From IMG/VR virus record IMGVR_UViG_3300021171_000005, positions 1 to 64,000 of that record: a DNA stretch of 64,000 nucleotides, one strand, 5' to 3'. The position numbers were made by a program, and so were the translations under genes. Source of the stretch: a virus. The notes beneath the pieces were generated by a model. The model had not been told where the DNA came from and did no database searches. It saw only the letters and a program-made list of their open reading frames with translations. Numbering within the stretch: the stretch's first letter is position 1; each line of letters begins with the position of its first letter. Positions 1 to 63,655 of this stretch are shown here, in pieces.

Positions 1-359
1 TGGTAGCCAGTGTTGGTTTCTTTGGCGTTTGTAAAATCCACCTTATCAAGAATGAATTTCACACCCGCCCCGCAAAGAGCAGATAACGACAATTCAGCAG
101 AGATAGTAAGCTTCTTGGCTACTCGCTTAGAATCGCTATCAGTTTGCGTGGAAACTTCATCGGCTTCGACAGTGGCGAAACGGCTGTCCGATGGAGGATA
201 ATAGCCAAATACGTCTAATGGTGCTTCGCAGAAATGGAAACCATTTTCACACAATTTCGTATCACCATTGTGTGTGTATGTCTCGCCGACTTTATATTGA
301 TGATCTCGACATTTTAAGTCAGGTCCGAAGCCTTTGAATCCCGTTACTTTGTCTGACAC
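1..359 (-). CDS. DUF7666-like phage protein, runs off the window edge
   Basis: Manual translation from GTG 359 (SD GGAGG): VSDKVTGFKGFGPDLKCRDHQYKVGETY...CENGFHFCEAPLDVFGYYPP. Absent from the ORF track because there is no stop in the window. Confidence 0.75.
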   Translation of the reverse strand, partial: MSDKVTGFKGFGPDLKCRDHQYKVGETYTHNGDTKLCENGFHFCEAPLDVFGYYPPSDSRFATVEADEVSTQTDSDSKRVAKKLTISAELSLSALCGAGVKFILDKVDFTNAKETNTGY

Positions 360-457
360 ATTATCCTCCAATGTCGCTGAACTTGTTAGATGATGCCCAA
401 CAACACATGTTTTAATGTCGCTGGCGATCTTATGTCGATGTCGCCAGAGTTGCTCGA

Positions 458-640
458 TTAAACTAGTTTTAGTTCCCCGCCACAGATGACGCATTTCCTC
501 TCATGCGGTCGGTAGGTCCAACTGTCGGCGCAATCTTCGCAGCGTTTCTCAACAGCCTTGAGTGACCGCCTGATATCGTCGTATGGCTTTTGCTTTGTCT
601 TTTTCGGGGTAGCCTGCTTGGTAGTATTCGCCTTCGGCAT
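458..640 (-). CDS. small basic Zn-ribbon protein
   Basis: CxxC...CxxC, Lys-rich; overlaps 549..842. Confidence 0.45.
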   Translation of the reverse strand: MPKANTTKQATPKKTKQKPYDDIRRSLKAVEKRCEDCADSWTYRPHERKCVICGGELKLV

Positions 641-842
641 CCTTGCACTCCTGTATCATCGCGTCCCACTCGGCGCGGAATTGTCGGTCCTCAACTAGCC
701 CTTGCCCAATTTCCAACAGAGTCAAGCATTCATCGCAGAGTTGGATTGCTTCCCAGTCTGCGCCGTGCATTGGCAACCGACTGAACCAATCGTCGCTAAC
801 GGCTCGTTTACACTGCTGGCATCGCTCCATAGAAAACCTCAA
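549..842 (-). CDS. hypothetical protein with two CxxC pairs
   Basis: CQQC, CDEC; part of the leftward early operon. Confidence 0.5.
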   Translation of the reverse strand: MRFSMERCQQCKRAVSDDWFSRLPMHGADWEAIQLCDECLTLLEIGQGLVEDRQFRAEWDAMIQECKDAEGEYYQAGYPEKDKAKAIRRYQAVTQGC

Positions 843-854
843 TCGAATCGTGCC

Positions 855-1055
855 CTACTTTCGTGTCCGCATCTGGACATATTCGGTCATCGACGCCTTA
901 TCAAAATGGCCGAAGCAATAGCCAATTTTGGTGGCCGGGCGCTTGCATCGAATCAAGCCAATTTTGGAATCTTCAACGTACTTGCAGCGGGATACTCCGC
1001 AGTTCTCGCATCGGTCTTCTAGTGCTTCCCAATCATGTACCCGGCATCGTTTCAT
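855..1055 (-). CDS. small Cys/His-rich hypothetical protein
   Basis: CxxHDW...CENC...CxxH; same strand as neighbours. Confidence 0.55.
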   Translation of the reverse strand: MKRCRVHDWEALEDRCENCGVSRCKYVEDSKIGLIRCKRPATKIGYCFGHFDKASMTEYVQMRTRK

Positions 1056-1089
1056 GGCATTAAATTATGTGTTAATCTCGCTCATTAAA

Positions 1090-2434: not shown

Positions 2435-2464
2435 TTGACAAATTGCGGGGCGACCTGATATTAT
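2435..2464 (+). promoter_or_regulatory. sigma70-type promoter TTGACA-18-TATTAT (TGn extended -10) with TTGCGGGGCG in the spacer
   Basis: TTGACA aattgcggggcgacctga TATTAT. Confidence 0.75.
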
Positions 2465-3890: not shown

Positions 3891-4201
3891 TGTACTCAGA
3901 CAATTGATGTATTAATTACACAGTTGTCCGGATGTGGACAAATGACAGATCAAACCCAACCCGCCCCGCAAATCAGCAAGTGCTTTGGCTCATTACCTAA
4001 GTGTGAGTGTAGGGAGATATACGAGGCGTTGGCAGCCGCGCCAGTGAGAGAATTGCTAGAGCGTATCGCTGATGAATACGGGCGCGAACCCCGCAAATAG
4101 AGAATGACAAATAGTGTCCACATGTGGACAAATAAGCGTATTATTAATGCGCGGCACCCCGCATATCTTGTAAGTTGTTGAAAACGCCCCGCATATTTAT
4201 A

Positions 4202-4230
4202 TTGACAAATGGCCGTATTAATGCAATACT
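4202..4230 (+). promoter_or_regulatory. sigma70-type promoter TTGACA-17-AATACT, probably giving a leaderless mRNA
   Basis: ATG 4238 lies 7 nt after the -10; several CCCCGCA motifs and a perfect palindrome (4115) lie just upstream. Confidence 0.65.
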
Positions 4231-4237
4231 CTAGGAC

Positions 4238-4660: not shown

Positions 4661-5037
4661 TGAAACCTTACACATTCCCCCACACTCCCGCGAATCAATG
4701 CCCAAGTTGCCGCGCAACGGACAATAACGCCTATGTAGACGCGAACGGCGTTAATATGCGGGCTTGTGGACGCTGTATGATCCAATGGCGCGACGTGTCC
4801 ACATCCGGACAACCCCCGCAATTCGCCCCGCAATCTGTAAAAGACACCTGGAATGAGGAAATGGTATTCAAGATGACAAGAGGAACATGGGCTGATCTAA
4901 TCGACGGTTTGCCTATTGGCCGTTGTTACGTCTTGGACGATGGATCAATCCGAGTAGAGCGCAAGCAAACCACACGCGAACTAGGCATAGAGCCAGATGT
5001 GACGTTCAAACACTGCCCGCCAGACGAGATGATCTAA
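4660..5037 (+). CDS. Zn-ribbon hypothetical protein
   Basis: TAATG coupling; CPSC...CGRC. Confidence 0.6.
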   Translation: MKPYTFPHTPANQCPSCRATDNNAYVDANGVNMRACGRCMIQWRDVSTSGQPPQFAPQSVKDTWNEEMVFKMTRGTWADLIDGLPIGRCYVLDDGSIRVERKQTTRELGIEPDVTFKHCPPDEMI

Positions 5038-7266: not shown

Positions 7267-7296
7267 GGCCCCGTTCCGGACGGGCGGGGCCTTTTT
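7267..7296 (+). terminator. intrinsic terminator-like hairpin abutting the start of the glycosyltransferase cluster
   Basis: GGCCCCGTTC-cggac-GGGCGGGGCC followed by TTTTT, then ATG 7297. Confidence 0.65.
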
Positions 7297-24779: not shown

Positions 24780-24871
24780 TTGCGCGGCAGGTTTCACCCG
24801 TTTCTGGAGAATAAAAGGGAACTAACCAGAGACACCTTGCCGCCTATAAGAGCGTGGAATAAGCCGCGCAA
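24780..24871 (+). ncRNA. unrecognised structured RNA, copy A
   Basis: TTGCGCGGC/GCCGCGCAA outer stem, GUUUCAC/GUGGAAU stem, core CCGCCU..AAGAGCGUGGAAUA shared with 26862-26970. Confidence 0.6.
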
Positions 24872-24885: not shown

Positions 24886-25140
24886 TTGTGGGGGTGGATG
24901 TCAATCCGGACCGTTCAGGGCATGGGTCTGAACTATACCTCAGCTTGATAACGCCTCCACGCGGCGAAGTAGCTGATCCGGCATCCGCCCCGCAATTCAT
25001 AAAGTTTGCCTAGTCTGTCGGATTACAGACAAAGCCCCAACGCCCGCGTGAGGGATTCACCTTGGTCAACTCTTGACTGAGGACGGAACACTGGATCGGA
25101 TTATCCAGCATAGGCCGCCGCGCATAAGAGTAATCCAATT
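24886..25140 (+). ncRNA. structured 5' leader of the major capsid gene
   Basis: ~16-bp closing stem 24886-24995 with internal hairpins; CGGATT-loop hairpins at 25013-25030 and 25091-25108; TAATCC at 25131. Confidence 0.55.
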
Positions 25141-26295: not shown

Positions 26296-26826
26296 ATGAA
26301 ATTTCAAGATTTAACCGGCCAACGATTTAACATGCTGACGATTGAGAAATACGTTGGCAAAAACAAAACGGGACAATCTCTTTGGCAGTGTAAATGTGAT
26401 TGCGGGCAAGAGAAAATCGTAGCCGCTCATCACATGAAATCTAATAATGTTACAAGTTGCGGAAAGTGCGCTCGCGTCAAAAGCCACACCCGCCACGGAA
26501 TGTCCTATACAGTCGAATGGAATTCATTTCACGCAGCGAAGAAGCGCTGTAAGCCGGAACAAGCGGATCGATACCCAGATCATGCAGGTAAAGGCATAGA
26601 GTTTAGATTCAACAGTTTTGAGGAGTTTTACGAGGAAGTCGGGCCGCGCCCCGAGCCTAAATTTGCGTACTCTCTGGATCGCTGGCCGAATCCATACGGT
26701 CACTACGAAAAGGGCAATATTCGCTGGGCTACGAAAGAGCAACAAGCGTTAAATCGTGCTTGCGAATGGTGTTTGGCTCGTAATAATGTGCTAGAATTGT
26801 CAAAGGGATTAGCAAATATATCTTGA
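26296..26826 (+). CDS. free-standing HNH-type homing endonuclease
   Basis: DLTGQRF.L...WQCKCDCG...SCG, HG, RC, YSLDR...GHYEKGNIRWAT..QQ..N. Confidence 0.85.
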   Translation: MKFQDLTGQRFNMLTIEKYVGKNKTGQSLWQCKCDCGQEKIVAAHHMKSNNVTSCGKCARVKSHTRHGMSYTVEWNSFHAAKKRCKPEQADRYPDHAGKGIEFRFNSFEEFYEEVGPRPEPKFAYSLDRWPNPYGHYEKGNIRWATKEQQALNRACEWCLARNNVLELSKGLANIS

Positions 26827-46713: not shown

Positions 46714-48644
46714 TGGCTACTCCGACACCACAGCCAATTGATATTTCGGCGGGTTTGGTTCCCAAACAAGATGCGGGGTCCGGTATAGATTTATCTGCCG
46801 GTCTTGATCAGTCCACATCCGGACAACCCGCCGCCCCGCAAGCACCATTCTTAGAACGAATGGGGCAGGGAATTGCTTCTGGTGCTGCTGAAACAGTTGC
46901 GGGGCTGGGCAAGATCGGCAGCCACATTCCCGGTACAAGTTACGTTTCCGAGAAATTAGGTGATGCTCTCGGTCTTCCTAAACTAGGACCCGATCAGAAT
47001 CCCTATGACACCGTAGAGAAATCCGTCCAGCACAATAAAGAGCAAGCCACTAATAATACTGCGGGGCGGATTGGATACGGAGGGGAAACGCTGACTGAAT
47101 TTCTCTTGGGCGACGAGGCTCTAAAAGGTTTGTCGTTGGCGGATAAACTTAAGGCCGCCTCTGGCGTTGCTCAAATGTTTGAGAAATCCCCGAAATTGAT
47201 GAAAGCTGTTCAGATTGGCGCGGATGCCATGAAGAACTATCCAAAGGCTACTGAAATTGTCGGCGAGGCTATGCGGCAAGGAGCGGTACAAGGAACGCAG
47301 ACTCTTGCCAAGACTGGCGGGGATGTTGACGAGGCCGCCAAAGAAGGCGCAACGATGGCCGGGACTTCCGGTGTTCTTGGCGCAGTCGGGGCAGGTGCCG
47401 GAAGCCTTCTTGAAAAAGGCGGCAAAGCCGCACAAACCGTAGAAACACTCGGCAAGGTTGCCGAAGCTGCACCATCCAAGGAAGAAGTAACCGAAGGTGC
47501 TAAAAACGCCGTAGATGCCGCCAAGCAATCCATGCACACGAAGTTCGAGGCGGGCATTCAAGATTTGACCGAACGTTTGGGCGATAAAGAAGTTCCTCAT
47601 GCGGACAGTCCTATCGCCGCTACTGCAAAAGAATTGATTAAGGCTCCCGAACCAGCCGAGCACGGGTTGGTGGCTGCTGCGAAAGAAGCCGCTGGCGAAA
47701 GAATGGACAAACCAGTGAAGGCTTTGCTTGATAAGGCCGCTGCGCAAGAAGGGCAGGCGTGGAAAGTAAATGATTTAGTTGATTTCCGGCAAGCCGTTAG
47801 AAAATTGGCGGATTCTTACCCGCCCGGCGACCCTAATGCCCGAACGCTTTATAAATTGCTACCTTCCGTGGACGATACTTTGGGAAAGTTGGCAGATCAA
47901 TCTGGGGATACTGCTGCTAAATCCGATTACGCGGCACTTCGAAAAGACTACAAAAACAAAATCAAATATTTCACTCCGTCTGGAAAACCAGAGGATCGCA
48001 TTGCTTATGCGACAGCCAATGTTTTACGCACAGGGACCAAAGAAGACATTGGCAAGTATCTCATGAGTGGTGATGCCCGAGCCAAGGTTAAAGCCTTGAC
48101 TGGACTGTTGGGCGATGACGGGGCTAAAGATATTGGTAAAAATGTTTTCAGTACGATGCTAGAAGATGCTTCTCCAAATGGAAGATTGAATCCGACAGCT
48201 CTTGTCCAGAAGTGGGCAAAGTTACCAAATGAAGCCAAGAACAGTCTCTTTGATTCTAAGATTGGCGACACCGCTATCCAACAGCTAATGCAGGATACCA
48301 AAAGCGCCGCTCAAGTTCAGAGATTGATGCGTTTAGGTGTGTTGTCTGCCATCTCTGGACCCATCGCTCATCCTATAGGCGCAGGAGTTGGAACTTTATT
48401 AGGATTGACAATCGAAGGCGGAGGATTTGAGGGCGGACGGAAAATGCTAGATTACGTTGCCAATCACCCCGCAGTTTGGAAAAGTCTTGGATTGGCGGGA
48501 AAAGTTGCAAAAGCCGCCGAGTCCGGAACTGGACAAGCTCTCGGCACCGTAATCAAACAGCAGGCCGGACGCGGACTTAGCAGTGTAATGCAAGGGGCCT
48601 CGCAACCTTTGAGCGAACCCGCACCAATAGGAGAAGAACAATGA
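46713..48644 (+). CDS. large internal virion / ejection protein
   Basis: Ala/Gly/Lys-rich with hydrophobic glycine zippers; N-terminal IDxSAGL repeat. Confidence 0.7.
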   Translation: MATPTPQPIDISAGLVPKQDAGSGIDLSAGLDQSTSGQPAAPQAPFLERMGQGIASGAAETVAGLGKIGSHIPGTSYVSEKLGDALGLPKLGPDQNPYDTVEKSVQHNKEQATNNTAGRIGYGGETLTEFLLGDEALKGLSLADKLKAASGVAQMFEKSPKLMKAVQIGADAMKNYPKATEIVGEAMRQGAVQGTQTLAKTGGDVDEAAKEGATMAGTSGVLGAVGAGAGSLLEKGGKAAQTVETLGKVAEAAPSKEEVTEGAKNAVDAAKQSMHTKFEAGIQDLTERLGDKEVPHADSPIAATAKELIKAPEPAEHGLVAAAKEAAGERMDKPVKALLDKAAAQEGQAWKVNDLVDFRQAVRKLADSYPPGDPNARTLYKLLPSVDDTLGKLADQSGDTAAKSDYAALRKDYKNKIKYFTPSGKPEDRIAYATANVLRTGTKEDIGKYLMSGDARAKVKALTGLLGDDGAKDIGKNVFSTMLEDASPNGRLNPTALVQKWAKLPNEAKNSLFDSKIGDTAIQQLMQDTKSAAQVQRLMRLGVLSAISGPIAHPIGAGVGTLLGLTIEGGGFEGGRKMLDYVANHPAVWKSLGLAGKVAKAAESGTGQALGTVIKQQAGRGLSSVMQGASQPLSEPAPIGEEQ

Positions 48645-52072: not shown

Positions 52073-52131
52073 GACTCTACGGCCCAAATCCCCTGCGAGG
52101 CCGATAAATCAATCCTAAGGATATTCTGGCC

Positions 52132-52407
52132 ATGCAAGATTCCACCCCTTTTGCGTGGGCAGTCGATCATATTCAGTTGATTGGCTGGCCCGCAGTGTGT
52201 ATTGCTGTTTATAAATTTGCGCGATTTTTGGATCAAATGCAACATCGCGCAGCCGTTGTAGAAGATAACGTAAATTCAATGGCGTCAAATCACTTCCCGC
52301 ATATGGAAGCCTCATTAAATTCCATCGATGAAACATTACAACGGCAAGAAACTAGATGGGAAGCTTGGCTGACCGCGCAAGCCGCACACAATCGTAAAGA
52401 TTCTTAA
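52132..52407 (+). CDS. single-TM plus coiled-coil protein (holin-like)
   Basis: TM then NH.PH motif and coiled coil. Confidence 0.5.
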   Translation: MQDSTPFAWAVDHIQLIGWPAVCIAVYKFARFLDQMQHRAAVVEDNVNSMASNHFPHMEASLNSIDETLQRQETRWEAWLTAQAAHNRKDS

Positions 52408-52426
52408 TTGTCCACATCTGGACAAA

Positions 52427-52921
52427 CTATAGTTTATTGAGGCAGGCAAACTCCCCGAAATATTTAATTGCAGCTTCGTTATAGGCGCGGGCGGCGTCAA
52501 CCTCATTATCAAAATATCCAAGATGCAGATTCTTTTTACTTCCATCGTTTAACCAAATAACGGAACGCCATCTGCCCTTCTGTTGCGTAACGCCTTTAAA
52601 TTTGGAGTGGGTATTTGATCTAGTTTTCCGTTTATTTCTAGAATTCTCGTGCGCTTTGGAGAGCCGCATATTCTCTTTTCGACAGTCCAGCGCATTATGA
52701 TTGATATGATCAACATAAATACGAGAATCAGTTACGTTCATAATAAATCTGTGTAGTCGAATTTCCTTCTTCTTGCCGGGACTGATGTATTGCCCGCGAT
52801 GAGCATAAATCATTCTGCTGTGCGGAGCGATTAGCACAGACCAGTGGTATTGTGACACTCGTTCATAATCTTCATCATCAACAATTGCTTCGTAGCCTTG
52901 CGTTAACGGTATTCTTTTCAT
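52427..52921 (-). CDS. HNH-AP2 homing endonuclease
   Basis: IPLTQG..AIVDDED, LHRFI, VDHIN..ALD.RK.N, SKFKGV, LGYF...AARAYN.AA...FGEFA. Confidence 0.92.
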   Translation of the reverse strand: MKRIPLTQGYEAIVDDEDYERVSQYHWSVLIAPHSRMIYAHRGQYISPGKKKEIRLHRFIMNVTDSRIYVDHINHNALDCRKENMRLSKAHENSRNKRKTRSNTHSKFKGVTQQKGRWRSVIWLNDGSKKNLHLGYFDNEVDAARAYNEAAIKYFGEFACLNKL

Positions 52922-52928
52922 ACCGCTA

Positions 52929-52957
52929 ATTATACCACACAAAACTCATTCTTTCAA
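52929..52957 (-). promoter_or_regulatory. sigma70-type promoter TTGAAA-17-TATAAT, leaderless
   Basis: TGTG extended -10; ATG 7 nt downstream. Confidence 0.75.
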
Positions 52958-52978
52958 CTATTAAAAAGGACCAATTTT

Positions 52979-53251
52979 ATGGGCTATCAGTTTTATCCGT
53001 TTAAATGTACGCAAGTTACTGTTACCGGAACCGCCACGCAATTAGTGGCAGCAAATGCCTCGCGATCTGGATTTCAAGTTGTAAATACCAGCACCACGGA
53101 CGTTTATCTAGGCGAGTCGAATGTCACTACATCGACAGGGCATCTTCTGACTGGTACGAAGGGCGCAAGTATTGGGTTCGCAACCACACAGGCTGTTTAC
53201 GGAATCACTAGCGGTGCTTCCGAAGTAGTCACGATTCTGGAGACGTTCTAG
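52979..53251 (+). CDS. small beta-sandwich virion protein
   Basis: V.V..TAT.L..AN..R....N......YLG. Confidence 0.65.
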   Translation: MGYQFYPFKCTQVTVTGTATQLVAANASRSGFQVVNTSTTDVYLGESNVTTSTGHLLTGTKGASIGFATTQAVYGITSGASEVVTILETF

Positions 53252-53253
53252 AT

Positions 53254-54363
53254 ATGAACAAACAATATACTGTTCCTACTGGAAATACTCCGGGTTCTGG
53301 CGGCGGGGGCGGAGGAAGCGGCACCGTAACGTCCGTGTCCATGACCGGGGACGGAACCGTACTTAATTCTGTAGTTCCCGGTTCTCCGGTAACGACTTCC
53401 GGTACTTTGGCCCCTACTCTCGCAAACGCGGGGGGCGGCACAGTATTAGGAAATAATACTACGTCGTCTGCAGCTCCTGCTTATACGACCGCGCCTGTGT
53501 TGGGAATCCCCGGTACGTCCACTGGTTCCATAGCTTTGGCGTCTTCCACTGCTTCGGGTAAATATACAATTACCGCTCCCGCAAATGCGGCGACCCCGAC
53601 GCTAACGTTGCCAACGGGAACGGGAACATTTGCTGTTACCGCATCTGCGCCAATTGTCCTGAATGCGACCACTGGGGCATTGACCGCTCCGACCGCAGTT
53701 ACATCTGCTGCATCGTTGACTTCGAATGCAGTGGTTCTTGGCGGGGGTGGGCAAGCAACTTCTACTCAGACTTTTTTAACCACAGATGGTGCGGCCAAGC
53801 TCACTGTCGGTGTGATTGGCGGTGGAAATGGTGTGTTGGCGCTGGCGGGTAATACTAGCGGAACCGCGACATTCACTGCTCCGGCAGTCGCGGGTACTTC
53901 TAACAATCCCGTAGCAGTAAGCAATATTTTAACCGGACCCGATGGAGGGCTGACCACTCCGACTTACGGGTTCACGAATTCAACGAGCATAGGCATGTCG
54001 CAGAGCGGCGGCTCGATGAACCTCAATTCCGCCAGCAACATCAATCTTGCCTCCGGTGGCTCGATCCTGTGGCAGTTTCAGGGCGGCGGCGATTTCCTAT
54101 TTAACAAAGGGAAAGGAGCACACATCCGTACCCAAGCGGCTAACAATGATATGGCCGGTACCCTCACTTCCGGTTCAGGCACAACGGTATCTGCCACGTT
54201 TACCACCAATTATACATCTACTCCTGCCATCGTGATCACTCCTACTACTGCTGGAATCACGTCTGCCATCATTACCTCTCAATCGAATTCAGGATTTACG
54301 ATAACTTACGCTCCTAGCGGAGCCGCTACGTTTAACTATCTCGTTATTGGTAATCCTAATTAG
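53254..54363 (+). CDS. tail fibre protein
   Basis: GTVTSV, Thr/Gly-rich, C-terminal F...Y.S.P...T...F tip domain. Confidence 0.7.
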   Translation: MNKQYTVPTGNTPGSGGGGGGSGTVTSVSMTGDGTVLNSVVPGSPVTTSGTLAPTLANAGGGTVLGNNTTSSAAPAYTTAPVLGIPGTSTGSIALASSTASGKYTITAPANAATPTLTLPTGTGTFAVTASAPIVLNATTGALTAPTAVTSAASLTSNAVVLGGGGQATSTQTFLTTDGAAKLTVGVIGGGNGVLALAGNTSGTATFTAPAVAGTSNNPVAVSNILTGPDGGLTTPTYGFTNSTSIGMSQSGGSMNLNSASNINLASGGSILWQFQGGGDFLFNKGKGAHIRTQAANNDMAGTLTSGSGTTVSATFTTNYTSTPAIVITPTTAGITSAIITSQSNSGFTITYAPSGAATFNYLVIGNPN

Positions 54364-54364
54364 T

Positions 54365-55684
54365 ATGGCAACCCCAAAACCATTCACAAAGCAATCGATA
54401 GTAACAACTTCTGACCAAGATGCCCTTCAAATTAAGGACATTAAAGGAGATGTTGTTGGCTGGATTGATTCGTCCGGAACTGGACAGGGTAATTTGGCGA
54501 GTGGAGGCGGCGGTGGAACTCCCAGTGGATCAAATACTCAAATACAATTCAACGATTCGGGTTCGTTCGGCGGCAATGCAAATTTTGCTTTCAACAAAAG
54601 TGTGAACACAGTTGGAGGCGTAGGAATTGGGCCGGGTAATACTCCGGGTCAAATTGATCCTATTTCTGGCGAAACTTCAGGCCCGACCGGTACATCAATC
54701 CTCGATGTTACTCAAAGTATATCATCGTCTTCGTTGCCCAATAATACAAGTGCAACATTAGTTAGTGGCATCGAGGCAAATCCATCGGCTGATAGTAGTA
54801 ATACATATTTCGCCTTATGGAACATCGCCTCTTCGAAATCCACTAATACTCACGCAATTAGTCAAATTGTCGCGCAGCTAGTTGAAGCTGATCATCTTGG
54901 TAGTGGGGCTGTTACAAATATTATTGGCGTAACTGGAGGCGCGTTCAACGACAGTTCAGGTAGCGTCGCCTCTATAGCGGGATTACTTTATTCAGCCCAA
55001 AATACGGGTAGCGGCCCTGCCACAAGCGTAACAGGAATATTAATTGAGAGTACCGGAGCGGCGGGTTCCGGAACTGTTACAAATAATTATGGAATTCGTG
55101 TTGCCAGTCCCTCAACCGCTGCGGTAGTTTCTCACAACTACGGTCTTCGGATAGAAGATCAAACAGGCGGAGGGGGCAATAACCCAGATACTTGGGCAAT
55201 TTTCGTCGCTGCAGCAGCGGATAAGAGTCAACTTGGCATCGTTCAGATGCAGGGTGCTCTTACCAAATATAATAATATTTCAACAGTTGCAAACGGCATT
55301 CCATCCATATACGGACAAGCGAATCTTACTGCGCAAGGGGCGAATGTAGCGGCAACGACATTATACGCGGTCCCCGCTTCCGGAACCGGTATTTACGAAA
55401 TAACTGTTTATATTGTTGTATCGCAGCCGGGAACAAATTCATCCACTTTGCCGGATTCTCGCCTTATCTATACTGATCAAGATTCCTCGGCCACAATTAC
55501 AGTAAATGCGACGGCGTCAAGTACAGGCAATACCACATCAACCTTCCAACAGTTTACATTTGTGGTAAATGCAAAAGCCTCAACTAATATTCAATACGAC
55601 ATTGGCCAAGTTACCCCCTACGCCACATCCGGAGCAACCTCAATGCAATTTGCGTATAGAGCACGAGCGAAATATCTAGGCTAA
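54365..55684 (+). CDS. tail fibre/spike with the C-terminal VDLTAQ-type domain
   Basis: GSNTQIQFNDSGSFGG, NYG repeats. Confidence 0.7.
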   Translation: MATPKPFTKQSIVTTSDQDALQIKDIKGDVVGWIDSSGTGQGNLASGGGGGTPSGSNTQIQFNDSGSFGGNANFAFNKSVNTVGGVGIGPGNTPGQIDPISGETSGPTGTSILDVTQSISSSSLPNNTSATLVSGIEANPSADSSNTYFALWNIASSKSTNTHAISQIVAQLVEADHLGSGAVTNIIGVTGGAFNDSSGSVASIAGLLYSAQNTGSGPATSVTGILIESTGAAGSGTVTNNYGIRVASPSTAAVVSHNYGLRIEDQTGGGGNNPDTWAIFVAAAADKSQLGIVQMQGALTKYNNISTVANGIPSIYGQANLTAQGANVAATTLYAVPASGTGIYEITVYIVVSQPGTNSSTLPDSRLIYTDQDSSATITVNATASSTGNTTSTFQQFTFVVNAKASTNIQYDIGQVTPYATSGATSMQFAYRARAKYLG

Positions 55685-57162
55685 TGACGATACAAATTCC
55701 TATTACTGGTTCGGGACTTCTCTCATCAACATCCGGTCTACAACTGTCTACGGGTTCGATTCCGGCGAATTCCGCCACTTCTGTTAATGGATTTGGGTCG
55801 TCGATCACTGTTGGTTTTGGTCTATCAAGTCCTTCAACACAAAATTATTTCGCGTTAACGTGCGCCAAAAATGGATGGGTTGGCACCAATAATGCAATTT
55901 CGGGAAGCGGCATCGCCGATCAAATTACAAGTATCAATGGAATTACCCAAGCTGTTGGAAACATAAATGTGGTTGAGACCGGCATAAACGACTCCTTTAC
56001 CGGAGGATCGTCCGTCAGTTATCAGGCGCAATATCAGGCCGGATTGTTGTATGCTCTAGTTAGCGCCGGACTTCCTGATGTAAATAAATTCTGGGCAAAT
56101 AATGCCGCTATTTCTTATGTAAATTGGTCGAGTAGTACTACGGTATTTGGCCAACCTTTTAAATTTACAAGTACTATCGGGGCGACTGCTACCGCAACTG
56201 TTAACGGTTCGGCAGTTTATGTTGGCGGACTGACTCAACAAACGAACGATTCTACATTATCTGTGACCGTTGACGGAATAAATTACGGAAATATTGTCAA
56301 TCAAGGCGCAAATGCCAGCCCTCTCAGCTCATTCAATTGGCCTTATGCTATAAGGATCGGCGGATTGTTTCCGGGGCCGCACACCGTAGTGGTTACATAC
56401 GCTTCCGGAACAAACAACGGCGGGATTAGTTTTATTGCCGGGAATGGCGGCTTGACCGCGAACGCGGGTAACGCTTTCAATCCCTCTGGGCCGTCCACAT
56501 ATGTTGTAAATGCAATTCAGGCGGCAAATAGAACGGGCTCCGGAGAAGCTCCCTATAATAATATTATCAATATTGTTTCCAGTCAGCTAGCAAGAGATGG
56601 TGTTAACGTTGTTGTCGTTGACGCGGCTAGTGCGTTCAATGGAACACTCGCGGCAAATATAAACGCGGGTGCGTCAAATCACCCTAGCGCGGTGGGGCAG
56701 CAAGTTCTTGCAAATTCTCTTCAAGCTGTGTTGAGCCCAGCAGCTACCCCGATGGACCGGCAACGGGTTCCTGTCCTTGCTTCGCCATTTGAAGTTGCCT
56801 CCGTAAATCTTACGGCACAATCTGCCGCTATTTCTGCTACGACGATTGCGACCGCTTCCCAAACGGGCATGTACCGTATTTCTTGGTCGGCAGCGATTAC
56901 TACTGCGGACGGTGTATCGTCTACATTGGGAGGAAGCAGCGGGTTTCAGATTTTATACACGTCTCCCACAGATAGTGTTTCAAAAACAACTGTATCAGGA
57001 AATAGTGTTACTTCGGCGGCGAATACAACTGGAACGGCATTAGGTGGAGAAATTGTCATTTATGCTCAAAACGGCACCGTTATCCAATATCAATACGGGT
57101 ACACATCTAACACTCCGGGTCAGATGATTTATGAGCTGCATATAAAATTGGAAACAATGTGA
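55684..57162 (+). CDS. SGNH/GDSL-hydrolase-like virion protein with the VDLTAQ-type domain
   Basis: FGSSIT, N.ISGSG, G.ND, HPS..G blocks. Confidence 0.7.
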   Translation: MTIQIPITGSGLLSSTSGLQLSTGSIPANSATSVNGFGSSITVGFGLSSPSTQNYFALTCAKNGWVGTNNAISGSGIADQITSINGITQAVGNINVVETGINDSFTGGSSVSYQAQYQAGLLYALVSAGLPDVNKFWANNAAISYVNWSSSTTVFGQPFKFTSTIGATATATVNGSAVYVGGLTQQTNDSTLSVTVDGINYGNIVNQGANASPLSSFNWPYAIRIGGLFPGPHTVVVTYASGTNNGGISFIAGNGGLTANAGNAFNPSGPSTYVVNAIQAANRTGSGEAPYNNIINIVSSQLARDGVNVVVVDAASAFNGTLAANINAGASNHPSAVGQQVLANSLQAVLSPAATPMDRQRVPVLASPFEVASVNLTAQSAAISATTIATASQTGMYRISWSAAITTADGVSSTLGGSSGFQILYTSPTDSVSKTTVSGNSVTSAANTTGTALGGEIVIYAQNGTVIQYQYGYTSNTPGQMIYELHIKLETM

Positions 57163-57440
57163 ACAATAGTGGAATCTCCGCGTTGAGTCAGATCGTTCAT
57201 AACGGGGATCAGACCTTCATTGTCCTATCAACTCCGGTTGACAATGAAGTCTTGTCAGAACTAATTGATGGGATAACAACGAATTTTCCATTAGCTAATA
57301 TACCGTCGATAGGATCAGTTCGAGTTTATTATAATTCAGGCCGTCAAGACCCGTCGCAATATTCGGTTCAGAATAACATCCTTATCTTGAACTTCACTCC
57401 GCAGCAAGGAGACACGCTTGTCATTGACTACCGCTATTAA
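57159..57440 (+). CDS. small Ig-like virion protein
   Basis: DG.TT.F.L, VYYN.GRQ....Y, P..GD....DY. Confidence 0.65.
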   Translation: MNNSGISALSQIVHNGDQTFIVLSTPVDNEVLSELIDGITTNFPLANIPSIGSVRVYYNSGRQDPSQYSVQNNILILNFTPQQGDTLVIDYRY

Positions 57441-59148
57441 ATACGGATTAATTCTATTTTTCGCTACGTGTCTCATGGCTCAGACTGCGAACACTGGAGC
57501 CAATGTTATCAATGTACGAAGTTATGGAGCCAAACCGGATGGTCAAGTTGCTACCGACTGTTCAATGGCTGCTTCATCTACAACGCTGACTTGCAAAGCT
57601 TCCCATTTCGTCACAGCGGACGTTAATAAAGTAATTTCTGTGTATGACAGCGGTGCAACGCTAAATGGTTTCATTCAGCCCCTAGCCACGACGATCTTAA
57701 GCGTTCAGAGCGGTACTCAAGTCACTCTCGCGGTCCAAGCTTCGAATTCTTCTTCCCCATCAAGCAGAGTCGTATGGGGAACGAATAACGACGTTCCATT
57801 CACGAATGCAATGAACGCCTGTGCGAGTCGTGGTGGCTGCGTATTCTCGATCCCAAAAGGTTTGTATCTTACGCATGGACTCAGCCTTCCGTGTTCAACA
57901 ATCGGCAATTTCACAAGTCTCGGCCTCGGAGTATGCACGCGGGCGTATAATAATATTGCGATTTGGGGCGACGGAACTGATGTTACGATACTAGAGAATT
58001 GGGAACCGGCAACATCATCTCTTGCGGTGATCTCTTTCGGCAGTCAAGCCGAGTTATCGCCGTATAACGGTACTGTGAATCCGATTACCAATGTATCAGT
58101 ACACGACATAACGCTCCGTCAAGTTAAAAACGCGACGAATCCTATCAAAAATCTTCGAGCCGACAATACCGATGGTCTGATCGTCGATCATGTCAAAGCA
58201 ATTGGAGGATCATATGAGGGATTCTACTTATCGGGGATTAACTACGATGCGAGCCATTTGTACGCGGCGGGGGTTGGGCTTGGGGGGCCAAAGAATTTTA
58301 CTTCAACTTCGGCATTGAATCTAATTGGCGCGTGGGGAAGAGTTAGCGAAAGTTATGTAACCGATTCAGGACAATGTATAGAGGCAGGGGGACCGCACGA
58401 GGAAATATGGCATATTGTGTGCGATGGCCGAGGACCCGACATTACTTCCGGTGTATCCCCTCATCTAGCAGTAAACATCTCATCGAATAGTTACGGAACG
58501 TGGGATGATCATGTTCACGACAATATTTTTGTAGCTTGGGCCGGAGAAGAATTCTTCAATCAATTAGGAAAATTTAAGGACTCTTCGTTCAATAATAATT
58601 TGATCATCGATGATACAGTCGGTTTGACTCTTGGTTCAGGTAAAGAAACGAACAATGTCAATGTTTATCCTGAGCAGACGATTGGTGCGCATGGTACTAG
58701 TTCTTGTTCGAATAATACATTCATCGTTACTTCCGCCGTTCATCCGGTAACATATTTCTTTCGTTTCGGCGACGGACTAAACCCGATGTTGGAAAACTGG
58801 ACGTGCGACGGCAATAAAATTACCTACGCTACGCCCTTTTGTGACACCGCACCATATCAGCCAACATTTAATAGCTCTGATTGCAGCAATGGAGGAGTAA
58901 CAACGATTCCGAATGGAATATTAAACGTGGGATCGATCTCCGGGATAGCTCAAATACGAATGTCCCATACGACAATTCAGGCTCCTTTAACTGCGTCTCC
59001 GTTCGGTACGATTGGTCAAGAAATCAATATTGTATCCGGAGTTCCGCTGAATCAGCTTTGGATAACGGATTGGGAATATAATCTGTCAACTCGTAAAGTA
59101 ATTGTTGGCGGCGGAGCGACAACTATACCCGCTACCATTTCCCAATAA
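57418..59148 (+). CDS. pectin-lyase-like beta-helix protein (tailspike/depolymerase-like) with an apparent signal peptide
   Basis: INVRSYGAKPDG, IPKG.Y, I.GDG; hydrophobic N-terminus. Confidence 0.75.
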   Translation: MSLTTAIKYGLILFFATCLMAQTANTGANVINVRSYGAKPDGQVATDCSMAASSTTLTCKASHFVTADVNKVISVYDSGATLNGFIQPLATTILSVQSGTQVTLAVQASNSSSPSSRVVWGTNNDVPFTNAMNACASRGGCVFSIPKGLYLTHGLSLPCSTIGNFTSLGLGVCTRAYNNIAIWGDGTDVTILENWEPATSSLAVISFGSQAELSPYNGTVNPITNVSVHDITLRQVKNATNPIKNLRADNTDGLIVDHVKAIGGSYEGFYLSGINYDASHLYAAGVGLGGPKNFTSTSALNLIGAWGRVSESYVTDSGQCIEAGGPHEEIWHIVCDGRGPDITSGVSPHLAVNISSNSYGTWDDHVHDNIFVAWAGEEFFNQLGKFKDSSFNNNLIIDDTVGLTLGSGKETNNVNVYPEQTIGAHGTSSCSNNTFIVTSAVHPVTYFFRFGDGLNPMLENWTCDGNKITYATPFCDTAPYQPTFNSSDCSNGGVTTIPNGILNVGSISGIAQIRMSHTTIQAPLTASPFGTIGQEINIVSGVPLNQLWITDWEYNLSTRKVIVGGGATTIPATISQ

Positions 59149-59155
59149 GGAGCTT

Positions 59156-59410
59156 ATGATTAAAGCATACATTCAATCATTTCTGGCGTTCACTAAAAGC
59201 GTGTTTTCAGAAGAAGGGCAGGGCAGCTACAGCCGCGTGGCCGGTGGAGTGTTGATAGGCTTCACCTGCGGATGGATAACATACCTAGTAATAAAAAACC
59301 ACGCCATGCCCGATCTTACGGGGCCTGCGTGGTTTGTAACGGCTGCTTCTGGTGGTCTCTACGGGTTGAATAAAGGCGCTGATTTCATCTCCGCATTCAA
59401 AGGTAAATAG
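59156..59410 (+). CDS. holin-like 2-TM protein
   Basis: S..G..S.SR followed by two TM segments. Confidence 0.6.
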   Translation: MIKAYIQSFLAFTKSVFSEEGQGSYSRVAGGVLIGFTCGWITYLVIKNHAMPDLTGPAWFVTAASGGLYGLNKGADFISAFKGK

Positions 59411-60000: not shown

Positions 60001-60355
60001 TGTACACCCCTGTTCTCGGTTTTCTGGTATTGAAAATACCCCGTACTAAATTCTCTACTAATGCGGGGTCCTCTAGCTTCGCCACCCAATTATCCATGAC
60101 TGTCTGAACTTTGTCCGGAAGTGGATTTTCTTGATACTTCTGCTTCGTACGTTCCCTGATTGCCCTATTCTTCTTTACTCGCGTCAAATTCCTTTTCTTG
60201 TAATAGCACGCCTCGCATAATCCTTTAGCCTTGTGCTTCCTCTCTGGATGGCACTTGGCTATTTTTATTGTCGGCTCGTGAATATTCTTATAGCACGGTC
60301 TGCACAAAGTATAAGCGTAGTGGCGTCGATCTGGATGACACTCCGCGTATTTCAT
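59993..60355 (-). CDS. protein with two CHP.R.H.A..LC..CY Zn-binding repeats
   Basis: Repeat visible in the translation; start ATG 60355. Confidence 0.65.
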   Translation of the reverse strand: MKYAECHPDRRHYAYTLCRPCYKNIHEPTIKIAKCHPERKHKAKGLCEACYYKKRNLTRVKKNRAIRERTKQKYQENPLPDKVQTVMDNWVAKLEDPALVENLVRGIFNTRKPRTGVYSA

Positions 60356-60732
60356 TTCTTCTCCGCAATTAACGAATTGAGAGTTTTCATCAGCTTGATA
60401 CATCCCTCGCCCTTTGGAGGCCGGTCATCTACAAGATTCCCGGTTTCCAAAGCATCCAAGATAATTGCGAGGCAGGCCATAGCATGTCCTAGATGATGAA
60501 CCCCGCTATCCTCCGCTTGTTCCTCGCCTTCCTTCCAAAGCATTACATGTCGTTCTAAAGCATCTAAATAAATGCTGGCCCGTACTTTCTTTGACCGCCA
60601 GTTGAAACTTGAATATTTCCTCGCACCATCCATCATCGCGTGCGCTAAATGTAAAGTGGCTGTTGTTGGTATAACGAAGGTGGATATCTTCTTAATCCCT
60701 AGTAAATCCTTGGGATTTGTTTCGTCGGACAC
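60352..60732 (-). CDS. dATP/dGTP diphosphohydrolase domain protein (DUF5664-like)
   Basis: NPKD..G.KK, GA.KY..FNW, Y.DA..RH, DSG.HHL.HA. Confidence 0.88.
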   Translation of the reverse strand: MSDETNPKDLLGIKKISTFVIPTTATLHLAHAMMDGARKYSSFNWRSKKVRASIYLDALERHVMLWKEGEEQAEDSGVHHLGHAMACLAIILDALETGNLVDDRPPKGEGCIKLMKTLNSLIAEKK

Positions 60733-60740
60733 GTCATCTC

Positions 60741-61223
60741 CTAATTGATAAAGGCAGCACTTCGTTTCGGTGACCCAAAATGATGGGCTATGAATTCAAC
60801 GGCTTCTTCCGTGGTATTGAGATAATGGGATACTGCTTCTTTTACAAAAGGATGGTTGAGCATCAATTTATTTGCGGGGTGGACGACCGCGATAATCGGC
60901 TTCTTCATCTCCCACGCCCATGCCAGCTCGCAGATTGTTCCTAGCAATGGGCGGGGCGAGCCGAAGCTCTCCAAATGCATCAGAATGACGTCGGACGCCA
61001 CGACATCGTGGTAGTCTCGCAGGATGATGTCCTTCGACGTGAGATTAGGATCGGTAATGCCGCCGTCCGGAGATTCGAGGGCAAGATTCTCTTTGCCCCG
61101 CATTGGAGAAAGAACATCAAACTCATGAGCCTCCAGAATGGGAGTTACTTCAATTCTCCACAATAAAGATTCGGGATAATCAGTAGAAATCAATCCTGCC
61201 AAATATATAGTCTTGCGTTTCAT
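60741..61223 (-). CDS. nucleoside 2-deoxyribosyltransferase-like protein
   Basis: IYLAG, RD..DV..SD, GT..E..WA. Confidence 0.85.
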   Translation of the reverse strand: MKRKTIYLAGLISTDYPESLLWRIEVTPILEAHEFDVLSPMRGKENLALESPDGGITDPNLTSKDIILRDYHDVVASDVILMHLESFGSPRPLLGTICELAWAWEMKKPIIAVVHPANKLMLNHPFVKEAVSHYLNTTEEAVEFIAHHFGSPKRSAAFIN

Positions 61224-62170
61224 ACCAGTTCCTTTTCAATCTCCTCTAGAATTGCGGGGTTCTCGTCCAAGAACGCTACAGCATTAAATCTTCCTTGCCA
61301 GCGATTTTCCCCGTAAGTCATCCACGCCCCGCTCTTGCTCACAACCCCCGCAGTAACCGCCATATCAAAAATATCTCCAGAGCGGGAGAATCCTCGGTCG
61401 TAGAGCAGATCGAATTCTGCAACTTTGCTAGGGGCCGAAACTTTATTTTTCTGGATTTTAACTTTTGTTCTTGCTCCAATTACTTCTTCGCCGTTCTTGA
61501 TTGCTCCCGCTTTTGAGACTTCCAGACGCATACCCGCGTAGAAGCGTAAGGCTTTTCCTCCCGTGGTTGTGGCCGGGTTTCCGTACATAACACCGATGCG
61601 GTCGCGCATCTGGTTAATCATGATGAAAACGCAATTGGACTTGTGAACAAGTGCAGTCAATTTGCGCATAGCCTGAGACATCATGCGGGCTTGCAGACCC
61701 ATCTGAGCATCACCAAACTCGCCTTCAAGCTCGGCGCGAGGAACCAGTGCTGCTACGGAGTCCACAACAACAACCGCAATATCTCCGGACTCGACCAAAG
61801 CCTTAGCAATTTCTAGAGCCTCTTCCCCGCAGCTTGGCTGGCTGATGAGAAGATCGTCTACGTTTACGCCCAATTTGGCGGCATGGTCCCGATCAATTGC
61901 ATGCTCTGCGTCCACAATTGCACAGAGTTCACCACCCCGTTGGGCTTGCCCGATTACTGACATGGAAATGGAAGTCTTACCGACCGCCTCTTGGCCAAAA
62001 ATCTCGATCACGCGACCGCGAGGAAATCCACCTACCCCGGTAGCCGAATCGAGGCTTGGTATGCCCGTAGAAATGACTTGAACCGGAACGTGCTCGGTAT
62101 CTCCCATACGAATAAGTGCTCCAGCTCCAAATTGTTTGTTAATTCGAGCTGTCGTTTCTTTGATAGTCAT
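61220..62170 (-). CDS. recA: RecA recombinase
   Basis: Walker A GQEAVGKT, DAEHA, VDSVAAL, QARMMSQAMRK, INQ.R, TTGG.AL.FY, KNKV; start ATG 62170 (SD GAGG). Confidence 0.97.
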   Translation of the reverse strand: MTIKETTARINKQFGAGALIRMGDTEHVPVQVISTGIPSLDSATGVGGFPRGRVIEIFGQEAVGKTSISMSVIGQAQRGGELCAIVDAEHAIDRDHAAKLGVNVDDLLISQPSCGEEALEIAKALVESGDIAVVVVDSVAALVPRAELEGEFGDAQMGLQARMMSQAMRKLTALVHKSNCVFIMINQMRDRIGVMYGNPATTTGGKALRFYAGMRLEVSKAGAIKNGEEVIGARTKVKIQKNKVSAPSKVAEFDLLYDRGFSRSGDIFDMAVTAGVVSKSGAWMTYGENRWQGRFNAVAFLDENPAILEEIEKELV

Positions 62171-62178
62171 AATCCTCG

Positions 62179-62934
62179 CTAGCAATTCGTCGTGCGAGCG
62201 CCATCCTCGCACTTCACAGCCCGACCCCAACCTCCGCAATCAAGACATTGAAAGCGACGGTATCGACGAGACTGCGTAATCGTGAATCCACGGTATTGAA
62301 TGTTCTTTGAATTACATTTCGGGCAAAATGCGCGGTTGACTACAGTGAAATTAGGATGATTGCTGATCCAAGGACGCAGCCGGAGATATAGCTTTTCCAG
62401 CAACAGAATATCTTTCTTGTTGTACTTCACCATTAACGCCCATGATTTAGGATCACCTTCAATGCACCCCTGCCACAAATCGAAGTCCGTCTTAATCTTT
62501 TTCTCATTCTCAAGTAGCGCGGACAAATCATCCAATTTATTGCTATTGAATCTTGCTACCTTCTTCGTCGCTTTCTTGGTATCGATGGTCTTAAACGGCT
62601 TCGGAGGTTTCAACCCGTGAAAGATAAATCGCGCTTGGAATACTTTTATATCGAATTGGTCTCCATTGTGCGCAACAATAATATCAGCTTCGTTGACTAA
62701 AGTCCACAGGTCTTTCACCAATTTCTCGTCATTGTACGATCCGGGGCGATAGCCTTTGAAATCCGGCAAAGCCTTTGCGAATACCTCTTTCTCATCTAGC
62801 CATTTGGCTGCGTAAGTTGCGAGGCAGGTCTCCTGTTTGAATCGAATGATATTCTGTTCATACTTGCCCCATGAATATCCAATGTTGGGGAATGTCTCCA
62901 GATCGAGAAAAAGTATTCTAGGTCGTTTTTGCAT
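62179..62934 (-). CDS. DEDD / RNase_H_2-like 3'-5' exonuclease with a C-terminal Zn ribbon
   Basis: LDLET, AHNGDQFD, IDT, YNKKD; CPKC...CLDC. Confidence 0.85.
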   Translation of the reverse strand: MQKRPRILFLDLETFPNIGYSWGKYEQNIIRFKQETCLATYAAKWLDEKEVFAKALPDFKGYRPGSYNDEKLVKDLWTLVNEADIIVAHNGDQFDIKVFQARFIFHGLKPPKPFKTIDTKKATKKVARFNSNKLDDLSALLENEKKIKTDFDLWQGCIEGDPKSWALMVKYNKKDILLLEKLYLRLRPWISNHPNFTVVNRAFCPKCNSKNIQYRGFTITQSRRYRRFQCLDCGGWGRAVKCEDGARTTNC

Positions 62935-62944
62935 TGGGTCCTTT

Positions 62945-63655
62945 TTAGAATCTATGCCCGAGGGCGAAGCCGATACCAATTCCGATGCCAACCTGCTTTA
63001 ATGCTGTTTTAACTTTTCCAAAGAATGTTGGCTTCGCTACGGCCAATTCTGCTTTACATGCATCATTTGCTTTCTTGATTTGATCATTGAGTCCTTGAAT
63101 TTGCGCGGCCTGCGTTGTATTCACCGCCGCGCAACTCGTTAACTGCTTATTGAGATTATCCTCCACTGTATGCCCAGCCAATACCTCCTGATGCAGCGAG
63201 TCAACCAATTCTAAGTTCTGTACGGTCGTCACCCCGGCTTGTCCAGATACGGACAAATTCTCTCCGGCGGGTTGCACATCTTGGGGATTGGCCGAACTAA
63301 TCAGCGTCCGCCACCTAGCCGCCAGCTCCGCAATTGTAAGAGTTGAATCTACTTTCTGTTGTTGCGCGGTTTTGTCCTTCAGCGCCGCAATTTGCGTAGC
63401 AATTAACGCATTTTGCGTAGACATTTGCGCGGCAAGTTGGGTGTACGCTTGTTGCGAGGCGGCGACTTGCTGGGCGAGCTGCTGGTTCTTGGCTACCTGA
63501 TCATCTAACACTTGCTTCGCAACGGCAGCGGCAGCCACAGCTTCGTCGTGTCTGTGGTTCTCAAACTTATTCAACAAGAATAGAAATACACCGAGCCCCG
63601 CAAGAATCAGGAAAATCCTCTCGTGAGCTTTTATGAATGTAATCCAGCCAATCAT
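62945..63655 (-). CDS. TM plus long coiled-coil protein (spanin-like)
   Basis: N-terminal TM, coiled coil, C-terminal GIGIG hydrophobic tail. Confidence 0.55.
   Translation of the reverse strand: MIGWITFIKAHERIFLILAGLGVFLFLLNKFENHRHDEAVAAAAVAKQVLDDQVAKNQQLAQQVAASQQAYTQLAAQMSTQNALIATQIAALKDKTAQQQKVDSTLTIAELAARWRTLISSANPQDVQPAGENLSVSGQAGVTTVQNLELVDSLHQEVLAGHTVEDNLNKQLTSCAAVNTTQAAQIQGLNDQIKKANDACKAELAVAKPTFFGKVKTALKQVGIGIGIGFALGHRF

Follow-up and report, generated by a model that had tools for sequence, protein, structure and literature searches.

Genome-wide words such as Chi, the uptake sequences and HIP1 have each exposed a DNA-reading machine. Here we analyse such a word in an uncultured soil phage, the 93,865-bp IMG/VR record IMGVR_UViG_3300021171_000005 (termed G000), of which bases 1-64000 form the stretch referred to as the window; a preliminary description of this window had singled out the heptamer CCCCGCA (TGCGGGG on the opposite strand) as hyper-abundant and placed inside promoter spacers, and had proposed a stoperator-like site, a Chi-like recombination signal or a modification target. 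Chi is present in 50 copies in phage P1 (94.8 kb) and in 23 copies in phage LLS (~43 kb), where 20 of the 23 lie in one orientation and cluster near one end; lambdoid phages with recombination genes of their own have few or no Chi sites, and the Chi-rich ones are without such genes (PMC12315714). The G000 word shares with Chi in P1 and LLS its shortness, G-richness and asymmetry, its rank as the most over-represented oligomer in the phage, an occurrence of about once per 1-2 kb, within genes as well, and its independence of codon usage. It differs in that it has no robust polarity, that G000 encodes RecA, ERF, SSB and a nuclease, and that a related clade carries a 5-mer every 83 bp.

Other described systems resemble the word in part. 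The stoperators of Cluster A mycobacteriophages, bound by the L5 gp71 repressor, number ~24-36 per genome, lie mostly in short intergenic gaps and keep one orientation relative to transcription; like the G000 word they are asymmetric (~10-13 bp) and present in many copies, some overlapping promoters, but G000 has 100-200 copies, 72% of them genic at random places, in both orientations and at positions that are not conserved. The DNA uptake sequences (DUS) of Neisseria and the uptake signal sequences (USS) of Pasteurellaceae, which belong to competent bacterial chromosomes and are driven by biased uptake, are asymmetric 9-12-mers at ~1 per kb, in both orientations, genic and intergenic, with some inverted pairs forming hairpins and with dialects among related lineages; a phage has no such route, however, and no known uptake sequence resembles the related clade's 5-mer at 12 per kb. 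HIP1 (GCGATCGC) of cyanobacteria is also genome-wide, found in all frames at ~1 per kb and maintained amid site turnover, but it is a palindrome linked to a cognate methyltransferase, whereas the G000 word is asymmetric and a DNA methyltransferase was not found in G000. Finally, primases of the T7 gp4 type use the template sites 5'-GGGTC, TGGTC and GTGTC; G000 encodes a comparable fusion of zinc domain, Toprim and DnaB-like helicase, and such an enzyme would need a short asymmetric word on both strands at ~1 per kb. A literature search brought up no paper on these words as signals, and none on over-representation of primase words.

Abundance and two-part form of the word

The window contains 60 copies of CCCCGCA/TGCGGGG, whereas 100 shuffles that preserve dinucleotides gave 8.19 ± 2.79 and never more than 18; this bears out the ~55 copies against ~6 expected given previously, and the first 5 kb hold 14 copies by our recount (13 had been listed). 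CGCCCCGCAA, at no more than one mismatch, is found 48 times in the window against 5.66 expected, and the full genome has 101 heptamer cores against 12.2 (order-1 Markov) or 17.8 (order-3). Both orientations are used, as had been noted, and without bias relative to the direction of transcription, which had been suggested as a point to check: 33 C-rich against 40 G-rich copies on the sense strand of genes, and 13 against 15 in intergenic DNA. Seventy-three of the 101 cores (72%) lie inside genes, in all three frames and on both gene strands, and are spread uniformly over gene deciles (chi-square p = 0.49). A cumulative strand-skew test of polarity along the genome gave p = 0.02 for a loose form of the word and p = 0.48 for its strict form (both defined below), with p = 0.34-0.67 and 0.14-0.28 in two relatives, G004 and G001.

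The preliminary description had itself named codon usage as the competing explanation, that is, an enrichment due to GCG-GGG/CCC-CGC codon pairs alone and with no bias towards intergenic DNA. Shuffling synonymous codons within genes yielded 13.4 ± 3.3 copies against the 73 observed in coding sequence (z = 18), and shuffling codon order yielded 9.3. Intergenic DNA, as delimited by crude gene calls (147 genes covering 85% of the genome), holds 28 cores against 1.4 expected, a ~20-fold excess that is four times the excess in genes. Because the shuffles leave the excess in place and the intergenic excess stands, a codon-pair or compositional artefact is ruled out. These data show that the word is a signal at the DNA level, selected or driven.

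Scans of single substitutions in G000 brought out a set of degenerate forms, GCCCCGCAA (36 copies), GCCGCGCAA (24), GCCTCGCAA (12) and GCCACGCAA (4), each with ~1 expected. CCCCGCA is thus merely the commonest form of a two-part, nine-base word, GCC-N-CGCAA (TTGCG-N-GGC on the opposite strand), present 76 times against 4.4 expected (17-fold), with the base at N ranked C36 > G24 > T12 > A4. Spacers of two or three bases between the half-words are near background in G000, and the zero-spacer form, GCC-CGCAA, is enriched 3-4 fold in G000 and in its relative G004. In the flanks there is a further weak preference, for T at the second base past the word and for A-rich bases ~6-7 bases past it, and no second half-site was found within 40 nt. 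The abundance of the 7-mer and 10-mer originally named therefore stands, but neither is the whole motif, since each represents one form of a degenerate word. In what follows, the strict form is the 9-mer GCC-N-CGCAA and the loose family is CC[C/G/T]CGCA (~200 copies in the G000 genome; background ~0.43 per kb).

Spacer dialects and site turnover in related phages

The closest relative overall, G004 (70 kb; primase-helicase 66% and portal 74% identical to those of G000), has the same word: 44 copies of GCC-N-CGCAA against 2.9 expected, with N ranked G23 > C12 > T7 > A2, and 11 copies of GCC-CGCAA against 2.8 (in G000, 12 against 4.0). The pattern is reversed in G001, a 93-kb phage whose large terminase is 61% identical to that of G000, with 81 copies of GCC-CGCAA against 4.7 expected and three of GCC-N-CGCAA against 5.1. 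CCCCGCA itself is not in excess in G001 (14 copies, against 26 for a reversed-word control). Its pentamer GCCCG occurs 1,118 times against 289 expected, or every 83 bp, in the context TYGCCCGHAA, uniformly along the genome, 546 and 572 times on the two strands, at equal density in genic and intergenic DNA and with no periodic spacing; genes hold 992 copies against 346 after synonymous shuffling. Eight more contigs of the G001 clade also carry an excess of GCCCG. In a more distant phage, G007 (primase 30% identical), neither spacer form was enriched.

The eight bases that are read are thus alike in the two lineages, as is the 17-fold excess, and the lineages differ in having one unread base between the halves or none. 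This spacer dialect is the most informative new result of the analysis, and a difference of a single base between sister clades argues for homologous readers. A precedent is provided by the Type I enzymes EcoR124I and EcoR124II (GAA-N6-RTCG and GAA-N7-RTCG), which are homologous readers of the same half-sites with spacers differing by one base; their spacers, however, are 6-7 bp long, their sites are avoided by phages rather than accumulated, and no Type I genes were seen in G000. A distant relative, L024 (large terminase 56% identical), has six copies of CCCCGCA in 6.5 kb, and so the word reaches beyond the G000/G004 pair; this phage also carries three copies of CGCCCCGCAAAC in tandem (L048: 5737-5775).

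Individual sites are not kept in place. The aligned orthologous genes, 32.8 kb in all, contain 57 family sites in G000 and 60 in G004, and seven of these coincide (0.96 expected by chance), so that 88% of the G000 sites in shared genes are displaced relative to G004. At conserved peptides the two genomes often use different synonymous codons, with just one of them spelling the word. Nine of 61 G000 sites sit on a G001 GCCCG (3.8 expected), mostly at shared Ala-Gly or Pro-Gln peptides, which leave room for either word. What maintains the word therefore acts on copy number and not on place, and sites turn over. Gene by gene, the word densities of orthologs in the two phages G000 and G004 are not correlated (rho = 0.21, p = 0.16).

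The word follows the overall kinship of these phages. The G000 primase-helicase is 66% identical to that of G004 and 39-47% identical to those of the GCCCG clade, and its large terminase (window 17569-19350, plus strand) shows the reverse, with 50% identity to G004 and 61-65% to the GCCCG clade; this terminase kinship, contrary to that of most genes, suggests an exchange of the packaging module. As judged from these identities, the word tracks overall kinship, that of the primase included, and not that of the terminase.

A candidate reader in the replication module and its alternatives

Some protein appears to read the DNA of these phages everywhere. At a probability of about 0.3, we favour a reading in which a protein of the phage replication module recognizes the word throughout the genome; the likeliest such reader is the T7 gp4-type primase-helicase, through its zinc-binding domain. 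On this view primers would start preferentially at the words, which would amount to a private priming code, and a minority of copies would later have been co-opted as GC-rich closing stems of RNA or DNA hairpins, some at the 5' ends of transcripts from strong promoters. More tentative still is the specific form of this proposal, a private code for priming or replisome loading in which the zinc finger of the primase would demand an eight-base word in two parts, present ~once per kb on each strand, and a two-residue insertion in its knuckle would have shifted the word of the genome from GCC-CG to GCC-N-CG; if true, an enzyme would have co-evolved genome-wide with ~100-1,000 dispersed sites.

The candidate is a fused primase-helicase of 630 aa, encoded on the minus strand beyond the window (genome 69586-71478), with Zn_ribbon_DnaG (E = 3.9e-17), Toprim and DnaB_C domains. 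In T7 gp4 and in bacterial DnaG it is the zinc domain that sets the recognition of template sequence. The first zinc knuckle of the primase reads C-PLP[S/G]-H (Cx4H) in G000 and G004, both of the spacer lineage, and it is a canonical CxxH (CIWH or CPFH) in all five no-spacer genomes examined. Words on one strand are separated on average by 0.8-1.05 kb in G000, by ~1.25 kb in G004 and, for GCCCGHAA, by ~0.83 kb in G001, and 0.8-1.25 kb is the size of Okazaki fragments. Kinship, the knuckle change and this Okazaki-size spacing of ~0.8-1.25 kb per strand make the primase the leading candidate, if weakly. In both G000 and G004, orthologs of the replication module are also about twice as word-dense as those of the virion module (3.28 against 1.42 copies per kb in G000; 2.57 against 1.34 in G004). 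In G001 the primase-helicase is divided over two open reading frames on the minus strand (G001:75184-77688), the zinc domain at 77011-77688 and the Toprim-helicase at 75184-76413, ~600 nt apart; G000, G004 and other relatives have a single fused gene instead.

Several observations weigh against this assignment. The match between knuckle and spacer comes from a single phylogenetic split, at which every other protein changed too, and G007 has a canonical CxxH zinc domain and no such word. In the T7 genome, the recognition pentamers of gp4 occur at only 0.86-1.68 times expectation, against a G000 word of eight fixed bases in 17-fold excess; over-representation is therefore not general to gp4-type primases. 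A GCCCG every 83 bp in G001 far exceeds the need for priming. Gaps per strand are clumped rather than even (coefficient of variation 1.25-1.53, largest 7-14 kb). TGCG[G/A]GGC starts 10-15 nt after the -10 of four strong promoters (26823 on the plus strand; 75378, 78593 and 83491 on the minus strand), always G-rich on the sense strand and in three of them as the 5' arm of a closing stem, where rough arithmetic from intergenic density would expect ~0.1 such cases; this placement, which is absent from G004 promoters, is real and non-random and concerns a small subset of copies. Neighbours arranged as TTGCGNGGC...GCCNCGCAA also lie closer together than those in the opposite arrangement, with medians of 149 and 289 nt in G000 (p = 0.006) and of 259 and 627 nt in G004 (p = 0.02). 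Priming predicts neither this closeness, nor the promoter placement, nor the four-fold stronger intergenic excess.

These same features are what a phage protein binding double-stranded DNA (a regulator, roadblock, silencer or genome organiser with many sites in the early and replication regions) would explain, with inverted pairs as stronger dimer sites and promoter copies as operators. We regard this as a doubtful explanation: it accords with the ~20-fold intergenic excess, with the same-orientation copies after four strong promoters and those in two early promoter spacers, with the closeness of TTGCGNGGC...GCCNCGCAA pairs in both phages and with the top density in early and replication modules, but 72% of copies are genic at uniformly random places without transcription bias, positions are not conserved and the promoter placement is lost in G004, a second half-site is absent within 40 nt, the analysis yielded no candidate protein, and more than 1,000 binding sites would be needed in G001. 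The stoperator version proposed originally founders on the lack of orientation bias, on the random genic places and on the displacement of 88% of shared-gene sites in G004; G000 does have an integrase-family gene, and a large-terminase profile search of 185,579 species genomes found no prophage relative, nor was a repressor identified. The pairs also underlie the view that the word is mainly a building block of RNA or DNA structure, closing the stems of leaders, terminators and processing sites, with solitary copies as by-products. At least eight word pairs close predicted structures, several of which beat shuffles (best z = -5.7), and the TTGCGNGGC...GCCNCGCAA arrangement is favoured; against this, just ~26 of the 200 family copies are paired within 80 nt, nearest-neighbour spacing being otherwise near random, solitary genic copies, oriented either way, dominate, the folding of several pairs does not exceed that of shuffles, and hairpins need no particular 9-mer, which makes structure the least probable of the explanations considered.

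It is unlikely that the word is imposed by the host, whether as a Chi-like signal for RecBCD/AddAB or as a repair or uptake word that the phage shares or mimics. The word has the Chi trait of a short, G-rich, asymmetric and over-represented sequence, TTGCGNGGC, being G-rich on one strand, 8-9 nt long and, at ~1 per kb, as dense as Chi in P1 and LLS; its density is kept amid site turnover, as with Chi or uptake sequences, and clades with different words could differ in host. The Chi-like inference of the preliminary description nevertheless meets the absence of robust polarity (p = 0.48 for the strict 9-mer; G004 and G001 likewise show none), a genome with its own RecA, ERF, SSB and PD-(D/E)XK nuclease (Rec-plus lambdoid genomes are without Chi), and the homologous GCCCG spread uniformly every 83 bp in G001; the word is moreover scarcest in the glycosyltransferase operon and the GDSL-lipase region, the modules that most probably derive from cells. 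About equally improbable is a functionless drive, in which biased mutation or gene conversion, for example mis-primed or annealed oligonucleotides copied into the genome or context-specific mismatch correction, turns near-matches into the word faster than selection removes them. Sites that turn over at constant density, enriched one-off variants, an excess that is larger where constraint is lower (in intergenic DNA), sisters differing solely in the base preferred at the unread position, and the encoded ERF-type annealing protein and RecA are all in keeping with it. A genome-wide drive is contrary, however, to a 10-fold range of density among modules of one genome; GCCCG in G001 shows no clear depletion of its single-substitution neighbours (transition neighbours at 0.95-1.23 times expectation), and a drive of the very-short-patch repair type was rejected on this ground; a Vsr-type or methylase gene was not found in G000; and orientation-specific pairing and promoter placement suggest that the word is in use. 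A modification target, finally, would be read by a non-canonical phage or host enzyme, with dense sites selected because they protect the DNA. Being asymmetric, 8-9 bp in length and equally frequent on the two strands, the word resembles the targets of Type IIG or III-like methylases, the genome shows strong restriction pressure (one CCWGG against ~133 expected), genes that may point to unusual nucleotide chemistry adjoin recA, and G001 has a partial C5 methylase. Yet G000 is without C5, N4/N6 or D12 methylases, TGT/DpdA or PurZ (profile searches for PF00145, PF01555, PF02086 and PF01702 were all negative, which covers canonical phage enzymes), protective modifications are not known to enrich their own target word, and the word-poor modules would stay unprotected, so that we consider this reading very unlikely. 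From the original set of inferences, that of a non-palindromic signal at the DNA level is thus retained, and the three functions offered for it each fail a test or are without support.

Module densities, placement of individual copies and genome context

The window span 66-63603 (no strand assigned) holds 60 exact cores and 124 copies of the CC[C/G/T]CGCA family, of which 16 cores and 28 family copies are intergenic. Family density per kb is highest in the early small genes (4.1), the capsid region (3.9) and the replication and recombination module (3.3), intermediate in the PolA end (2.2), the fibre region (2.1) and the terminase-portal region (1.9), and low in the glycan operon (0.97) and the first tail block (0.67), down to 0.27, about background, in a word-poor plus-strand module at 52073-59410. 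No relic of GCCCG was found in the word-poor modules, which were accordingly rejected as recent imports from the GCCCG clade. At the other extreme, a minus-strand gene of unknown function at 62945-63655 contains at least six family copies, mostly as in-frame Ala-Ala-Gln (GCC GCG CAA).

Counting from the first base of a promoter-like -35, only 8-9 copies lie in the range from 30 nt upstream to ~60 nt downstream. The placements listed in the preliminary description are all found at their positions. CGCCCCGCAA lies on the minus strand at 1484-1493 in the 17-nt spacer of a leftward sigma70-like promoter (-35 at 1496-1501, -10 at 1473-1478), and again on the minus strand at 2443-2452 (plus strand: TTGCGGGGCG) in the spacer of a rightward promoter (-35 at 2435-2440, -10 at 2459-2464). 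A plus-strand core (1628-1634) lies 5 nt upstream of a -35 at 1617-1622 that belongs to a leftward promoter-like site, and the core at 4187 ends 8 nt before a -35 at 4202; the latter belongs to a non-coding stretch at 3891-4237 with four CCCCGCA cores (3964, 4089, 4157 and 4187) and a TGCGCGG at 4148. The claim of placement inside promoter spacers consequently holds for two early promoters, but as a headline it does not, as it describes 2-3 of ~100-200 copies. In the gap before the gene at 3020, three family copies (TGCGCGG, CCGCGCA and TGCGGGG; 2954-2996) fold no better than shuffles. G001 has a box of its own: (T)CCGTTTTCCG lies in the spacer of sigma70-like promoters, directly abutting the -10 (for example G001:51902, 63145 and 90426; L012-L016), and TACGGAAAAC occurs in 36-50 copies in that genome; this box is a likely operator, without a G000 counterpart.

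At least eight pairs of the TTGCGNGGC...GCCNCGCAA type close predicted hairpins, three of them flanking the capsid gene. Compared with shuffles, the elements near the capsid gene fold with z-scores of -2.1 to -2.8, and stronger values are reached at 63.1 kb (-4.4) and 78.5 kb (-5.7). Upstream of that gene, TTGCGCGGC ... GCCGCGCAA form a 9-bp closing stem (24781-24870, plus strand; z = -2.1), followed by a long stem-loop (24886-24996, plus strand; -49.2 kcal/mol, z = -2.8) whose 3' closing arm is CCGCCCCGCAA at 24986-24995. Downstream, ATGCGGGGC stands 11 nt after the -10 of a consensus promoter, TTGACA-17-TATAAT (26823-26851), and pairs with GCCCCGTAT in a structured plus-strand element (26862-26970) closed by AUGCGGGGC/GCCCCGUAU. 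Two of these three elements share GGUUUCACC after the 5' arm. A further copy, TTGCGGGGCG (27012-27021, minus strand), abuts a GTCCGGAAACGGAC hairpin 62 nt before the gene at 27075. In a gene of the tail-fibre region, a TGCGGGG ... CGCCCCGCAA pair closes a 70-nt fold (46772-46841, plus strand; z = -2.1). An intrinsic terminator at 7267-7291 (plus strand) consists of GGCCCCGUUC-loop-GGGCGGGGCC followed by U5, and its arm GGCCCCG is related to the word without being a copy of it. Folding thus agrees with the hairpin arms reported earlier at 24988 and 26863 and with the related arm at 7267-7291. We read the paired and promoter-placed subset as a secondary use of an abundant GC-rich word.

Within an open reading frame at 4814-4833 (plus strand), CCCCGCAA-TT-CGCCCCGCAA form a tandem pair with a 12-nt period, a unit of which the distant relative L024 has three; a search for CCCCGCAA-NN-CGCCCCGCAA in other phages returned 12 matches, nearly all unrelated high-GC coding repeats. 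A fused composite, in which the quasi-palindrome GTCCACATCCGGACAA is directly followed by CCC(C/G)CCGC..., is found three times, at window 4796-4833 and 46810-46841 and at genome 80147-80185.

G000 has a G+C content of 47.8%, no detectable tRNA genes and no nucleotide-level match to known phages. From ~1.7 to 59.4 kb its genes are on the plus strand (small early genes, a glycosyltransferase operon, terminase, SU10-type portal, capsid and tail), and from 59.4 to 93.9 kb they are on the minus strand, where RecA (61220-62107) is accompanied by an RNase H-like exonuclease, a clamp-like protein, a PD-(D/E)XK nuclease, SSB, an ERF-type annealing protein, ligase-family and integrase-family proteins, PolA and a weak O-like initiator. 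Adjoining recA on the minus strand (window 60352-61223) are genes resembling a dATP/dGTP diphosphohydrolase (MazZ type) and a nucleoside 2-deoxyribosyltransferase, which may point to manipulation of the nucleotide pool or to unusual nucleotide chemistry; the idea of a Z-genome raised by the MazZ-like gene was dropped, as PurZ was not found in G000. The capsid gene (window 25152-26198, plus strand) matches its G001 and G004 orthologs over only a 109-130-aa piece, at 92-94% identity, the other orthologs of G000 in these relatives being 30-75% identical; in these relatives the capsid gene may be interrupted, or the gene calls may have cut it short. The single CCWGG in 93.9 kb of G000 compares with 39 copies in the 70 kb of its sister G004, which suggests that this strain in particular avoids a restriction site of the EcoRII/Dcm type; the avoided sites in G001 are different (CCGG, GCGC, GGCC and CGCG).

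A RecA search for clues to the host returned only genome bins at 51-55% identity, of unclear phylum. G000 or close strains are present in several soil metagenome runs: the genome segment 60001-80000 (L017:1-20000) is covered by contigs of four other soil runs, whose pieces differ by ~0-15% and include several replaced segments as well as indels. A diverse G000 population has thus persisted in soils sampled from 2018 to 2022.

An uncultured soil phage family combines a 17-fold excess of a word, a clean one-base shift of its spacer between sister clades and a density kept amid complete turnover of its sites, and this combination is strong evidence for a protein that reads the phage DNA throughout. 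The word marks the modules that have long been resident in a mosaic genome. If another protein is the reader, the word is a ready bait for finding that protein. If the primase is the reader, these phages can make replication specific to their own genome, and such words could serve to match replication enzymes to their target sequences straight from metagenomes.

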